From Pelobium sp. (lineage in GTDB: Bacteria; Bacteroidota; Bacteroidia; Sphingobacteriales; Sphingobacteriaceae), in NCBI GenBank assembly GCA_037968815.1, contig JBBKWF010000012.1:20384-84383 (forward strand): 64,000 nt of DNA, written 5' to 3'. Below, in pieces: positions 36,367 through 54,501 of this stretch (position 1 is the stretch's first letter; each line of letters starts with the position of its first letter). The notes under the pieces were generated by a model. That model saw only the letters and a list, made by a program, of their open reading frames with translations, had not been told where the DNA came from and did not search any database. The position numbers were made by a program, and so were the translations under genes.

Positions 36367-37515
36367 ATGTTTAAAGCTGATTCCAAATATTTACTCGCTA
36401 TTGATGAATCCACTCGTGTTAAAGTCGTTAAACAATTTGCATCTCTCAGTTTAAAATATAACCAACAATTAAATCATATCGTATCTACAGCTACTAAAGT
36501 ATTTAAAACCCCTATAGCATTTATCACCTTAATTGATGATGAAACTCAATAGATTAAAATAAGTAAAGGCTTAGATATAGAACAAACTCCTCGCAGCTTA
36601 TCTTTTTGTACCCATACTGTTAAACATAAAAGTATACTTGTTGTAAGCGACACACTTTCTGACCCTAGGTTTTCCCAACATCCTTTCGTTACAAATAGTA
36701 CTAAAATCAGATTCTACGCAGGCATTTCCATAATTACTCAAACCGGACACTGTATAGGAACACTATGTGTTATGGACAAAAAACCTCGTAATCCCACTAC
36801 AGAGCAAAAAATGATGTTAAAAGCTTTATCGCAAAGTGTTGCGAATGTAATGGAGCTAAAGTTAACTACGGGTCAGTTAAATAATAGGTTAACAGACTTA
36901 AAATTAGTTCAAAAAAATAAATCTCAAAATGAAGTAAAACTTCGAGCCATGTTTGAAAGCTTGACGGATGCTTATTTTTTGCTAGGCAAGCATGGCGAAA
37001 TTATTGATTTTAATCAGGTTGCTTATCAATCAATTAAAAAAAAATATGGCACTAGGCTTTCCTCTGGACGAACAATGAGTGGCTTCTTAAATCCAGATTC
37101 TCGAGAGACTTTTTTATTCCATTTTCAAAATGCATTAAAAGGTAAGTCAATGAGTTTAGAAAAACTTAAAGGATTTATTAATGATGAGAAAATATGGTGG
37201 GATTGTCGCTTTGTGCCTGTTATTAATGAAGAGGGGGAGACTATAGGAGTTTCTTATACTGCTAGAGACATCAATGAAAGAAAGTTGCATGAATTAAAGA
37301 TAATGGAACAAAAACAATCATTAATGAGAATAGCAGAAATCCAATCACATGATTACAGAGGTCCTGTTGCTACTATTTTAGGATTAATGAGTTTAATTGA
37401 AAGTGATAATTACGTCGCTTCAAAAGAATACTTACTCATGCTTCATAATACCACAAAAAAACTAGACGAAAAAATTCACGAAGTGGTTAATTTGGTGAAT
37501 AGTACTCCTTTATAA
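36367..37515 (+). pseudogene. GAF-PAS-HisKA sensor gene interrupted by one in-frame amber stop
   Basis: ORFs 36367-36552 and 36772-37515 share a frame. After TAG (36550-36552) the GAF continues stop-free (IKISKG...SFCTH...DPRF..HPFV...IRFYAG...IGTLCVMD). TAG sits where GAF domains of this type usually have Trp (Q-W-x-K). Confidence 0.85.
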
Positions 37516-37631: not shown

Positions 37632-40600
37632 ATGAAACCGAAAGAACCACATTATATTATTGCAATAGGTGCTTCTGCAGGTGGCATGGACGAAATTAAT
37701 TCTTTTTTCGATCACACCCCTTTAGATGGTGTAGCATATATTATCATTCAACATTTATCGGCCGATTTTAAAAGCAGAATGGTAGAGTTATTAGCTCGCC
37801 ATAGCAAACTAGAGATTAAAGAAGCACAAAATACTGAAGAGGTATATACCAATCATGTGTATTTAATCCCAAACGATAAATACATGACCATTAAAGATGG
37901 TAGATTATTACTAACAGATAAAAAGCTGAAAGGACCTCACCTTACCATCAATAATTTCTTTAATTCACTCGCAGTAGACTGTGGGCCAAAAGCTATTGGT
38001 GTGATTCTTTCTGGTTTGGGATCTGATGGTACAGAAGGCATAAAGGCTATCAAGAAAGTAGGAGGAATGATTATAGCAAGAAATCCTGAAACCTCTCAGT
38101 ACGCAAGTATGCCTTTGCAAGCTATCAATACGGGTATGGTTGATTTTATTTTAGAACCCGAATTGATGCCCATGGCTATTGAAGATTATGTAAAAAATAA
38201 AACTAAAATATTAACTGAAAGTGATGATGAAAAGTCATTAGCTGCTATTGTTGAGCTCATCAAACAAAAGACACCACTTGACTTTTCGGAATACAAGCAC
38301 TCTACCATTCTTAGAAGAACAAAAAGAAGAGCTACGCATAGTAATTTTAGCAACCTCGGAGCTTACTTAGAATATTTGAAAGATACACCAAAAGAAATTA
38401 GTGAACTCTCTAAAGAGTTCCTGATCAGTGTTACTTCTTTTTTTAGAGACCCGGAAGCCTTTGAGACTATTAAAGAAAATATTCTTCCAGCTTTGTTAAA
38501 CAAACTTCTTCCAGAGGAAGAGCTGAAAATTTGGGTAGCGGGTTGTGCCACCGGAGAAGAGGTTTATACCTTCGCTATTTTAATTGCCGAGCAACTAAAA
38601 GGTAATCGTAAAGATAATGTAGTTAAAATATTTGCAACAGATATTGATACGCTAGCAATGGATCACGCTAGTAAAGGGGTTTATTCGGCCACAACAACAA
38701 AAAATATACCTTCAGTATTATTGGATAAGTACTTTCTTAAGGAAGGCGATCATTATAAGGTTAAACCCATTATCAGAAAGATGGTGATATTTGCCCATCA
38801 CGATTTGTCGAAAAATCCTCCTTATTGCAACATGCACTTAATTAGTTGCAGAAATATGTTGATCTACCTTACACCACTGCTACAAAAGAAAATATTTTCT
38901 ATGCTGCTCTTCGGTCTCCGTAAAGATGGCTACTTGTTTTTGGGTTCTAGCGAGAACCCAATGCCTATTATCTCTGATTTAGAAGTTGTAAATAAAAAAT
39001 GGAAGATATATAAAAATATAAAAGCGAAAACAACATCCAGTTTCGCTTCTTTCACCATGCCTGAACTGCTTGAAGTGAAACAGCTCCCTCATTCTTACCT
39101 AAGTAATGAACCTGCAAAAATTATGGGACATACTTTGGCTGAAATGATGAATTTACAATTGGCCAAAGAGTTGAACTATTTGACCATTTGCGTAGATGAA
39201 AATAACCAGGTAATTAAATCTTATGGTGATACCAAAAGATATTTACTTCAAGAAAATTTCAATTCAAATTTATCTGAATTATTACCAGGCTCAATCGCTA
39301 TTGCATTTAATAACCTGAGTACTAGCGCCCGTAAATCCAACAAGAAAGAGAGTGTAGGCGGAATTATGGTTAAGGATGGAGATAAGGTGTTAAATGTAAA
39401 AATGAGCGTTGTTCCCTTGATAGATAAAAAAGGGATGTCTAAAATATTAATGGTGATTTTTACATCAGATCATGAAATAGCAACTGAAGACAAGGCTCTT
39501 CTTTTTGACGAAAATGTATTTCATGATAAATATACAGAGAATTTAGAGGAAGAATTAAAGGATATCAGAGAAAAACTGCAGGTCACTTATGAGCAGTTAG
39601 ACGCTTCCAACGAAAACATGCAATCCTTTAATGAAGAATTGATTTCTGCCAATGAGGAAATGCAGAGCACTAATGAAGAAATGCAATCTGTTAATGAAGA
39701 GTTACATACCATCAATGCAGATTATCAGATCAAAAATAAAGAGTTGCTGGAAATTAATGACGACCTGAATAATTATTTCAGAAGCAATATTAACGGGCAA
39801 TTATTTATCAATAAGGATCTGAAATTAATGAAGTTCTCACCTGGGGCAGTTCAGCAGATCAACCTGATGGAATCTGACATTGGCAGACCTATTAGCCATA
39901 TCTCCACCAATATTAAATTCGAAAGCATTATTGACGATGTTAAAGAAGTGCTTAAAAAGGGTAGTTTGATTTCAAAAGAGATTGAAACCCACAATGGTAA
40001 ATGGTATCAGATGATGATTATGCCTTACCTCAAACAAGCCGACGATAAAATAAATGGTGCAATAATTACTTTTAACGATGTTAGCGCATTAAAACAGGCA
40101 CAAACAGAGCTCGATTCAAAAAACAAAAGTCTGATCAGAATCAATAAAGATTTAGACCATTTTATCCATGCCGCGTCTCATGATCTTTTAGCGCCCTTAG
40201 GTAATATAGAGACCAGTATCAATGTGATGAATCATATTGCCTTGTCGGATGAAAAACTGATTGACATTCTCAACATCATCAATAACTCTATTAAAAACTT
40301 CCGCTTATTGATTACCGATATCTCTGTTATCTCTAAAATAGAAGGAGAAATGGTGAAGATGGAGTTGGTTGATATAAATGAGCTACTGGATAACGTTGAA
40401 TGGAGTTTGAAAGACAAGATTGAACTTTCCGGAACGGTCATCAAACGGGAAATTGAGATTGAGAAAATCTGGTTCTCAAAAAAGAATTTAAGAAGTATCT
40501 TATTCAACCTTATATCAAATGCCATTAAATTTAAGGGAGAAAATAACCCTGAAATTATCATTCAGACACTCACAAGTAGTGGTGAAACCATTTTATCAGT

Positions 40601-40808
40601 ACAAGATAATGGGAAGGGAATGGAAAAAGATGGAATGAAGAAGATTTTTGATATGTACGGAAGGTTGCACCAAGATGTTGAAGGTAGCGGTATAGGCTTG
40701 TATCTTGCCAAAAAAATTGTTGATGCTGCCGGTGGTGACATTGAAGTGGAAAGTACATTAGGACAAGGAAGCAAGTTTACCATTCTATTTAAGACCCCAC
40801 ACTCCTAA
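37632..40808 (+). CDS. CheB methylesterase-CheR methyltransferase-PAS-histidine kinase hybrid
   Basis: CheB 'IGASAGG', 'IQH', 'LSGLGSDG'; CheR 'TSFFRD', 'GCATGEEVY', 'ATDID', 'CRNMLIY'; PAS; H-box 'ASHDL'; 'NLISNAIKF', 'DNGKG', 'GSGIGL'. Confidence 0.92.
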   Translation: MKPKEPHYIIAIGASAGGMDEINSFFDHTPLDGVAYIIIQHLSADFKSRMVELLARHSKLEIKEAQNTEEVYTNHVYLIPNDKYMTIKDGRLLLTDKKLKGPHLTINNFFNSLAVDCGPKAIGVILSGLGSDGTEGIKAIKKVGGMIIARNPETSQYASMPLQAINTGMVDFILEPELMPMAIEDYVKNKTKILTESDDEKSLAAIVELIKQKTPLDFSEYKHSTILRRTKRRATHSNFSNLGAYLEYLKDTPKEISELSKEFLISVTSFFRDPEAFETIKENILPALLNKLLPEEELKIWVAGCATGEEVYTFAILIAEQLKGNRKDNVVKIFATDIDTLAMDHASKGVYSATTTKNIPSVLLDKYFLKEGDHYKVKPIIRKMVIFAHHDLSKNPPYCNMHLISCRNMLIYLTPLLQKKIFSMLLFGLRKDGYLFLGSSENPMPIISDLEVVNKKWKIYKNIKAKTTSSFASFTMPELLEVKQLPHSYLSNEPAKIMGHTLAEMMNLQLAKELNYLTICVDENNQVIKSYGDTKRYLLQENFNSNLSELLPGSIAIAFNNLSTSARKSNKKESVGGIMVKDGDKVLNVKMSVVPLIDKKGMSKILMVIFTSDHEIATEDKALLFDENVFHDKYTENLEEELKDIREKLQVTYEQLDASNENMQSFNEELISANEEMQSTNEEMQSVNEELHTINADYQIKNKELLEINDDLNNYFRSNINGQLFINKDLKLMKFSPGAVQQINLMESDIGRPISHISTNIKFESIIDDVKEVLKKGSLISKEIETHNGKWYQMMIMPYLKQADDKINGAIITFNDVSALKQAQTELDSKNKSLIRINKDLDHFIHAASHDLLAPLGNIETSINVMNHIALSDEKLIDILNIINNSIKNFRLLITDISVISKIEGEMVKMELVDINELLDNVEWSLKDKIELSGTVIKREIEIEKIWFSKKNLRSILFNLISNAIKFKGENNPEIIIQTLTSSGETILSVQDNGKGMEKDGMKKIFDMYGRLHQDVEGSGIGLYLAKKIVDAAGGDIEVESTLGQGSKFTILFKTPHS
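39603..39707 (+). repeat. Five coding heptad repeats S-x-N-E-(E/N)-(M/L)-x in the linker coiled coil
   Basis: ASNENMQ SFNEELI SANEEMQ STNEEMQ SVNEELH, with 21-nt periodicity in the DNA. Confidence 0.8.
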
Positions 40809-42510: not shown

Positions 42511-42810
42511 TTATTCGAATTTTAATTTATTAGGGTTTTGGCGTGTATCAAAAACCCTTAATATGTAAACTGTGTCAGCTGTATGAGAATATATCATACT
42601 ATTTTGTTTAGAAATAACACACTTCCTAACCTTTTGCTTTTTATAAATGATGGGATATAATTTGGGCGTTTTAGAAACTATGTTAACATGGTATTCAGTA
42701 TCTTTCAAGAATTTACTAGCGATTTCTAAACTCCATTCTGAAATTAGATAATTGATAATCATCGATAAATCGTTTTCAGATTCCGGTGACCATACAATAT
42801 TCCTAACCAT
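42511..42810 (-). CDS. RelE/ParE-family toxin
   Basis: 'IVWSPESENDL..I..YL..EW', 'P..YP', 'VRKCVI', 'YILRVFDTRQNP'. Confidence 0.85.
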   Translation of the reverse strand: MVRNIVWSPESENDLSMIINYLISEWSLEIASKFLKDTEYHVNIVSKTPKLYPIIYKKQKVRKCVISKQNSMIYSHTADTVYILRVFDTRQNPNKLKFE

Positions 42811-43053: not shown

Positions 43054-44199
43054 TTAAAGCCTTATTTCTATTTGCTGATTTTTTAATATTTGCTTCAATT
43101 CTGGGATTAATATCTCTCCATAATGGAATACAGAAGCTGCTAATGCTGCGTCTACATCCGTTTTTTGGAAAACGTCTATAAAGTCCTCACAACAACCAGC
43201 ACCACCAGAAGCGATAACAGGAATAGTAACCATATCGTTAATCTGTTTTAACAATATATTATCAAACCCTGATTTTGTACCGTCTTTATCCATTGAAGTC
43301 AATAGTATTTCCCCTGCACCACGTTCTTCCGCTTCTTTTATCCAGTGCTGTGTTTGCAGTTCTGTTGCTATTCTTCCGCCGTTAAGGTGTACAAAATCCC
43401 CATGAGGTAAATTCTTGGTATCAACAGCTAAAACCACAAACTGAACGCCAAATGCTTTAGCTAAGTCATCAATTAGTTTTGGGTTTCTCACTGCTGCAGA
43501 GTTGATGGAGATTTTATCCGCACCTGCATTTAGCAGAGCTTCTGCGTCTTTAAGTTCGCTAATTCCACCACCAATTGTAAAGGGAATATTGATTTGCCTT
43601 GCAACAGACTTTACCATTTCAATGGTGGTTTTCCGCTTTTCGTGAGTAGCAGTAATGTCTAAAAACACCAACTCATCTGCGCCTTGGTTTGAGTACTGCC
43701 AAGCTAATTCAACAGGGTCACCTGCATCACGTAAATCAACAAAATTGACTCCTTTTACAGTTCTACCATCTTTAACATCTAAACAAGGAATAATACGTTT
43801 TGCAAGGTGGCTTCCCCTAAATCCCCCAAGGGGGACTTCCATGTTTGACTTAATTGTATTTAACACTTTTTCTATATTTTGAAAGACATCTTTGTTTGCA
43901 AATCTTAGCACTTTTATGCCGAGATTTTCTAGATTCAATTGCCTTGTTCTGTCGTTTTTAAATACTTCTTGAAGCAGATGTATGCTTCCGTCTAATTCAA
44001 TTACTAACTTATGTTGATGGCAATAAAAATCAGCCACGTAATTTGAAATAGGATGTTGTCTTCTAAATCGACAACCTAACTGCTTTCCACTTAAATATCC
44101 CCATAATAATTTTTCTGCATCCGTTTCTCTAACTCTTAGTTCTTTTGCGTTCTTGAAAATTATCCCGTTAGCCCCAAAAAACATATTAGGTTTTTCCAT
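43054..44199 (-). CDS. hisF: DUF559 (Vsr-like nuclease)-HisF in-frame fusion; IGP synthase cyclase subunit
   Basis: Residues ~1-119 DUF559 ('FRRQHPI..YVADFYC...[10 protein letters not shown]', 'GIKVLRF.N'); linker [12 protein letters not shown]; then [19 protein letters not shown], a full HisF lacking Met1. Confidence 0.9.
43814..43838 (+). repeat. REP-like repeat B: CCCCTAAATCCCCCAAGGGGGACTT
   Basis: C-run plus TCCCCC-AA-GGGGGA palindrome; encodes the fusion linker on the minus strand. Confidence 0.8.
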
Positions 44200-53702: not shown

Positions 53703-54392
53703 TTATACTGTTTCAAACTTATAACCAACGCCTTTAACGGTGGTTACATAATCGTTTCCTAGTTTTTCGCGTAATTTTCTGATGTGGACATCAATGGTTC
53801 TGTGGGTAACAACAACAGAGTCTTCCCAAATACTGCTTAAAATTGCTTCGCGAGTATAAACTTTTCCTGGTTTTGATGCTAAAAGGTGTAGTAATTCGAA
53901 CTCTTTTTTGGCTAAAACTACTTTGTTCCCGTTCTGGAAAACCAAAAAAGCATCTCTATCAATTACTAAATCAGCTATTTCTAGTTTTTCTTCGGTAATA
54001 TCTTCGGGTTGTAGGTTGCGTCTTAAAATGGCGTTTATTCTGCTTAATAAAGCTCTAGGTTTAATTGGTTTTGCGATGTAATCATCAGCACCAACGTTAA
54101 AACCAGCAATTTCAGAGTATTCTTCGCTACGGGCAGTTAAAAAAACCACGAAAGTATTCTTAAACTCGGGCATTGTTCTTAATACCCTGCAGGTTTCAAT
54201 GCCATCCATTTTCGGCATCATTACGTCTAATATGATTAAATCAGGGGAGCATTTTTTTGCTTCCTCTACTGCTTCCTTTCCGTTTTTTGCAGTATAAACT
54301 ATATAGCCATCTTTTTTCAAAGTATACTCTATCAGTTCTAGGATGTCTGGCTCGTCATCAACAACTAAAATTTTTTGCTTGTTAGTACTCAT
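53703..54392 (-). CDS. OmpR-family response regulator
   Basis: 'LVVDDE', 'LDVMMP', 'FLTA', 'KPI', wHTH 'KEFELL', 'RTIDVHIRKLREKL'. Start reassigned to ATG at 54392; TAAATTTG -7 element at 54415-54408. Confidence 0.93.
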   Translation of the reverse strand: MSTNKQKILVVDDEPDILELIEYTLKKDGYIVYTAKNGKEAVEEAKKCSPDLIILDVMMPKMDGIETCRVLRTMPEFKNTFVVFLTARSEEYSEIAGFNVGADDYIAKPIKPRALLSRINAILRRNLQPEDITEEKLEIADLVIDRDAFLVFQNGNKVVLAKKEFELLHLLASKPGKVYTREAILSSIWEDSVVVTHRTIDVHIRKLREKLGNDYVTTVKGVGYKFETV

Positions 54393-54501
54393 AAAATCTA
54401 TTTGGCTCAAATTTACAAGCTTTATTATTGATATTGTTAAGCTAGTGTTAACAGACTGTTAAAGTATTGTACAGTTGATTTTAAAGTTACATTTTTTTAA
54501 C

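Follow-up and report, generated by a model that had tools for sequence, protein, structure and literature searches.

The stretch of DNA considered here (referred to as the window) comprises 64,000 nucleotides from Pelobium sp. (GenBank assembly GCA_037968815.1, contig JBBKWF010000012.1, positions 20,384 to 84,383 of the forward strand). At 37632..40808 of its forward (+) strand the window contains a gene for a 1058-residue protein (P0001) which, judged from its sequence, is a cytoplasmic sensor histidine kinase and belongs to the MAC1 family (K13924, [quoted passage not shown]), an assignment made because it is homologous over its full length to entries that bear the name CheB/CheR fusion protein. 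MAC1 and MAC2 are proteins of the methyl-accepting coiled-coil (MAC) type, which either contain (MAC1) or associate with (MAC2) the methylesterase CheB and the methyltransferase CheR (bioRxiv 10.1101/2022.05.07.491037; MiST3, PMC6943060). Here, we discuss evidence that the MAC1 protein on balance probably methylates and demethylates a helix bearing Glu pairs in its own coiled coil, thereby tuning its kinase; this is the best-supported reading of the data.

The protein begins with a CheB methylesterase catalytic domain (37659..38177, residues 10-182; Pfam CheB_methylest), which lacks the receiver domain found in chemotaxis CheB; the CheB part starts already at residue 10, and Pfam gave no Response_reg match anywhere in the protein. 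It is followed by a CheR methyltransferase dependent on S-adenosylmethionine (SAM; 38238..38957, residues 203-442), composed of CheR_N (residues 203-251) and CheR (residues 267-442). Next come a poorly conserved tether of about 54 residues (38958..39119, residues 443-496), a PAS-like fold without a Pfam match (39120..39467, residues 497-612) and a single long helix of 92 residues (39510..39785, residues 627-718), which joins this fold to a PAS_10 domain (39765..40082, residues 712-817; identified by Pfam and in a structure model). Within the helix, six heptads (39588..39713, residues 653-694) are the candidate methyl-accepting sites. The C-terminal kinase consists of a DHp/HisKA region (40155..40346, residues 842-905), in which the phospho-acceptor His850 is found in the motif ASHDLLAPL, and a HATPase_c catalytic domain (40482..40796, residues 951-1055; Pfam). 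All of these elements are encoded on the + strand.

According to the original prediction, made from the DNA sequence alone, the Ser/His/Asp motifs of CheB, the SAM motifs of CheR and a full kinase are intact, which is borne out by Pfam and by alignments to Escherichia (E.) coli CheB and CheR and to HK853-type kinases. Residues Ser15, His41 and Asp132 of the CheB domain align to the E. coli CheB triad S164/H190/D286, and the equivalents of E. coli CheR R53, R56, R98, E129, D154 and Y235 are conserved; the first of these, R53, has a role in recognising the methylation helix. The CheB triad and the key CheR residues are likewise kept in ten diverse family members aligned with the E. coli K-12 enzymes. 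Experimentally determined structures of CheR, CheB and HK853-type kinases can be aligned to the corresponding parts of the protein. The HisKA match is weak (17.2 bits), yet residues 832-1051 align to HK853-type structures, and the kinase boxes are conserved (H850, N959/N963, D992-G996 and G1018-G1022). Both the CheB and the CheR domain thus look catalytically competent from their sequences.

The region between CheR and the kinase was modeled separately (residues 455-830, from a 65-sequence alignment; mean predicted local distance difference test score, pLDDT, 81.7). The model displays a disordered segment with pLDDT <50 at residues 472-498, i.e., within the tether, followed by the PAS-like fold, the long helix (pLDDT >90) and the PAS_10 fold. 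Its best structural matches are tandem-PAS sensors (WalK, DosP, FixL and LOV-PAS kinases). What lies between CheR and the heptads is thus predicted to be more than a linker, i.e., a tether followed by a folded, PAS-like unit. For the protein at full length, AlphaFold gave a poor model (pLDDT 65, predicted template modeling score 0.30); this model was used for secondary structure alone and was uninformative on the docking of domains to each other.

The six heptads, all located inside the one helix, read YEQLDAS, NENMQSF, NEELISA, NEEMQST, NEEMQSV and NEELHTI, and contain four invariant Glu-Glu pairs, at residues 668/669, 675/676, 682/683 and 689/690. The five heptads with four Glu pairs that had been noted earlier at 39603-39707 are confirmed by the translation and are the same six-unit array in another reading register. 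The general pattern is a-E-E-L-Q-S-x with Asn at position a and Leu or Met at position d. Heptads 1 and 2 have diverged within this Sphingobacteriaceae clade, with EQ and EN in place of EE, which leaves the four canonical pairs.

A search with residues 455-711 against 1.84 billion representative proteins gave 10379 representative clusters at E<=1e-3, of which 3468 were found at E<=1e-10. Among 120 representatives with at most 50% identity to each other, anchored on the downstream motif, heptads 3-6 read N/E/E/L/Q/S in 116-120 of the 120, including at the solvent-exposed b, c, e and f positions. Because the 21-bp period of the heptad-coding DNA displays only 62% matches while heptads 3-6 of the protein are nearly invariant, the heptads are an old repeat, neither a chance occurrence nor a recent one.

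Conservation along the whole protein was compared in 102 diverse full-length representatives, where the mean frequency of the top residue is 0.85 in the heptads, 0.61 in CheB, 0.55 in CheR, 0.35 in the PAS-like fold and 0.25 in the tether. The best-conserved segment of 21 residues is found at residues 675-695, above all segments that hold an active site, which rank just under those of the heptads. That exposed residues are conserved even more strongly than the catalytic centres suggests that something reads the surface of the helix. A six-frame scan of the genome found at least three consecutive heptads of this kind in the MAC1 protein alone, although the scan's small-residue rule overlooked a looser Glu-rich coil in a second kinase, discussed below.

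The heptads also resemble the sites at which the same two enzyme families, with the same key residues, act in chemoreceptor adaptation. In E. coli Tar the known methylation sites Q295, E302 and Q309 are located in the heptads TEQQASA, LEETAAS and MEQLTAT (the residues were checked in the Tar sequence). Tar and MAC1 share a register a-E-[EQ]-x-x-[AS]-[ST] in consecutive heptads (compare N-E-E-L-Q-S-T in MAC1), but differ in that the core position is Asn in MAC1 and hydrophobic in chemoreceptors, and in that MAC1 is predicted to offer its enzymes one uninterrupted helix, where chemoreceptors have a hairpin bundle.

The original prediction noted that the window holds no methyl-accepting chemotaxis protein (MCP), CheA or CheW, and the same is true of the entire genome (4.0 Mb in 22 contigs, 99.94% complete), where neither an MCPsignal match nor a CheW-like domain was found; the canonical CheA/CheW partners are thus absent from both window and genome. 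In a family-level survey of 101 genomes the helix module was present in 36 and any MCP in 3; 33 of the 36 module-bearing genomes are without an MCP. At the level of the phylum (201 genomes), the module was found in 39, of which 29 are without an MCPsignal match. Because the module is common in MCP-free genomes, its enzymes cannot depend on chemoreceptors.

These data are consistent with the following sequence of events. The protein would dimerise through the long helix in a parallel arrangement, with Asn at a and Leu or Met at d. The tethered CheR would then methylate Glu residues at the exposed b and c positions of four to six heptads, either within its own subunit or in the other subunit of the dimer, and the CheB domain would remove the methyl groups. 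The covalent tether may here stand in for the pentapeptide docking site of chemoreceptors. With its charges neutralised, a coiled coil that has an Asn core and is only marginally stable would change in stability or register, and this change would in turn modify the coupling of the upstream PAS-like sensor to PAS_10 and the kinase. Since CheB lacks a receiver, feedback, if any, would be restricted to a preference of the enzymes for the substrate helix in one of its conformations.

The part of the original prediction that concerns methylation of the protein's own coiled coil is thus supported by the conserved Glu-pair heptads, the Tar register, the apparently competent enzymes and the MCP-free genomes. 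A number of observations weigh against it. The literature searched reports methylation for no MAC1 protein. The Glu-to-Gln signature of sites deamidated by CheB offers no support; Gln is found in 8 of the 120 representatives at heptad 1 and is rare at the pair positions, while at residue 655 in close relatives Gln (22 of 40) is almost matched in frequency by Arg or Lys (17 of 40). The likeness to chemoreceptors is at the level of the motif and does not extend to homology of the helix, as BLASTP gave no alignment to E. coli Tar and Pfam no MCPsignal (PF00015) match in the protein. CheR and CheB usually act on a four-helix bundle, but would here have to act on a two-stranded parallel coiled coil. 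The surface residues may also be invariant because they bind a different partner or pack on the PAS domains. Finally, no route for feedback is visible in the sequence; it is this step, not seen because the CheB domain has no receiver, that the proposed "memory device" needs.

The idea of self-methylation is not new, but is the published hypothesis behind the MAC1 name, and the gene described here is a typical representative of a family that is both very large and already catalogued; more than 3348 close homologues bear the name "two-component system CheB/CheR fusion protein". It shares with the family the receiver-less CheB, CheR, the Glu-pair coiled coil, PAS_10 and the kinase output, and differs in nothing essential. 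Over the middle region its identity to the nearest relatives is 60-82%, and the heptads are the same. The naming is attributed to Wuichet and Zhulin (2010) in bioRxiv 10.1101/2022.05.07.491037 and in MiST3 (PMC6943060), and the former describes the MAC1 family as experimentally uncharacterised. Literature searches, also under other names for the fusion, found no functional study and no experiment on MAC1. As cited in the same preprint, Wuichet and Zhulin found only ~20% of the MAC-bearing species to be without other chemotaxis genes, whereas the absence of such genes is the rule among the genomes sampled here. The support that is new in the present analysis is the conservation of the heptads, the Tar register and the occurrence of the module in MCP-free genomes.

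The closest tested analogue, a MAC2-like system, is found in Bacillus cereus, where RsbM acts on the hybrid kinase RsbK: it methylates the kinase's signalling helix in vitro, as detected using labelled SAM, and thereby represses sigma-B (PMC4574943). As is proposed for MAC1, an enzyme of the CheR family here targets a helix located just before the kinase core, outside chemotaxis. The two systems differ in that RsbM is a separate enzyme with no paired esterase and RsbK contains CHASE3, HAMP, GAF and REC (receiver) domains, while MAC1 carries both enzymes in cis and its helix is found between two PAS folds.

The RsbK-type counterpart in the Pelobium genome is not the MAC1 gene but a locus on contig 22 (L008:10493-17663, - strand), which encodes a REC-kinase, a CHASE3-HAMP-GAF hybrid kinase, REC, a separate CheR, CheB and REC. 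Ahead of its DHp region the hybrid kinase has a Glu-rich coiled coil (TEELQSQ...SEEELRVQQEELLQS). The standalone CheB of this locus is split into two frames by an apparent frameshift at a run of A (near L008:11040-11070), while it is intact (193-210 residues) in four of four same-genus genomes; the CheB domain of MAC1 is therefore the only intact esterase in the genome. Forms of MAC1 without the enzymes also exist. In a same-genus genome (G098), a 600-residue paralogue composed of PAS-like fold, helix, PAS_10 and kinase, with identical heptads (L019:6157-7959, +), is located directly upstream, on the same strand, of a full CheB-CheR kinase of 1080 residues (L019:8041-11283, +). A second such form, of 547 residues and with intact heptads, is found in another genus (genome G039). 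These paralogues and the second CheR/CheB cluster make action in trans plausible alongside that in cis, and the description of the protein as "self-contained" is accordingly doubtful.

It has therefore to be considered whether the two fused enzymes have their main targets in trans, namely the RsbK-type kinase of contig 22 or, in relatives, the enzyme-less helix kinases, the MAC1 helix itself being chiefly a signalling coiled coil. Such action has a precedent in RsbM and RsbK (PMC4574943), and both the lone intact esterase and the enzyme-less paralogues fit it. Yet CheR is found in the same polypeptide as the helix in 124 of the 150 representatives that carry the helix module (many of the remainder are fragments), and the helix is better conserved than the enzymes, which a plain linker would not need. 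Furthermore, two same-genus genomes have kept the standalone CheB, presumably as part of an RsbK-type cluster, but display no match to the MAC1 helix module, i.e., the two systems are separable. We consider predominant action in trans unlikely, although it largely overlaps with methylation of the helix by the MAC1 enzymes, since action in trans on paralogues fits a role of the helix as a substrate. A more far-reaching view, in which MAC1 forms a complete adaptation circuit in one polypeptide, without CheA, CheW or a receptor array, with a tether for docking and with feedback by conformation-dependent access, and in which its CheB may also service the RsbK-type kinase and so couple both methylation systems, is put forward only tentatively.

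Rather less likely is a scenario in which the helix is methylated without any adapting memory, the receiver-less CheB being constitutive, such that the level of methylation sets the gain of the kinase and might report the ratio of SAM to S-adenosylhomocysteine. The start of CheB at residue 10 is compatible with this scenario, as is the lack of a CheA, CheW or adjacent regulator that could phosphorylate it, and in the only tested analogue, RsbK/RsbM, methylation serves as a fixed repressive setting, with no esterase paired to it (PMC4574943). On the other hand, both opposing enzymes have been kept in one protein over thousands of lineages, which argues for dynamic turnover. Adaptation of chemoreceptors relies in part on a choice of substrate that depends on conformation, for which no receiver domain is needed. 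That CheB and CheR are idle scaffolds or ligand-binding modules, with the heptads conserved as a polar Asn ladder or for binding of a partner, is highly improbable: coiled coils do not usually have Asn at each a position, these residues could be structural or ion-binding, and methylation has never been shown for the family (according to the 2022 preprint), but all catalytic and SAM-binding residues checked are invariant in diverse members and the active sites are second only to the heptads in conservation.

With respect to its phosphoryl acceptor, the kinase of the MAC1 protein is an orphan. The original prediction was mistaken in stating that the window holds no response regulator. One of the 49 receiver domains of the genome is located in the window, in an OmpR-type regulator (REC and Trans_reg_C; 53703..54410, - strand), ~13 kb from the MAC1 gene, flanked by genes for lipoyl synthase and a thioredoxin-like protein and without an adjacent kinase. 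As an orphan, this regulator could be the partner of an orphan kinase; nothing ties it to MAC1.

The MAC1 gene is surrounded by glutamate synthase on the upstream side and by a convergent WD40 gene and the his operon on the downstream side; a scan for promoters and terminators gave no signal above shuffled expectation. Immediately upstream is a GAF-PAS-DHp-like gene without an ATPase domain (36367..37515, +), broken by an in-frame TAG (36550-36552) at a position that is Trp in the 382-residue orthologue of the same genus, which leaves frames of 61 and 247 residues. This gene was considered as a conserved partner of MAC1 and rejected, as the two are adjacent only here and in the closest relative, while homologues in other genera are found on other contigs or at a distance. 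In the his operon, a single frame of 381 residues (43054-44199, -) combines a DUF559 endonuclease-like part (residues 15-119, E 4e-31) with a complete HisF (residues 134-362), which is either an odd fusion or the result of a mis-set start codon. A gene for a ParE-type toxin (42511-42810, -) lies between hisIE and hisF.

The MAC1 gene of this Pelobium genome adds no principle beyond that proposed by the family name; its value is that of an experimental system. The genome offers a clean test bed, with no MCP, CheA or CheW, a single MAC1 gene in which four Glu pairs are invariant, and one RsbK-type cluster in which the esterase is broken. If the helix is the substrate, the MAC1 proteins, which are found in thousands of lineages, would demonstrate methylation-based control of signalling outside chemotaxis, in a one-protein form.

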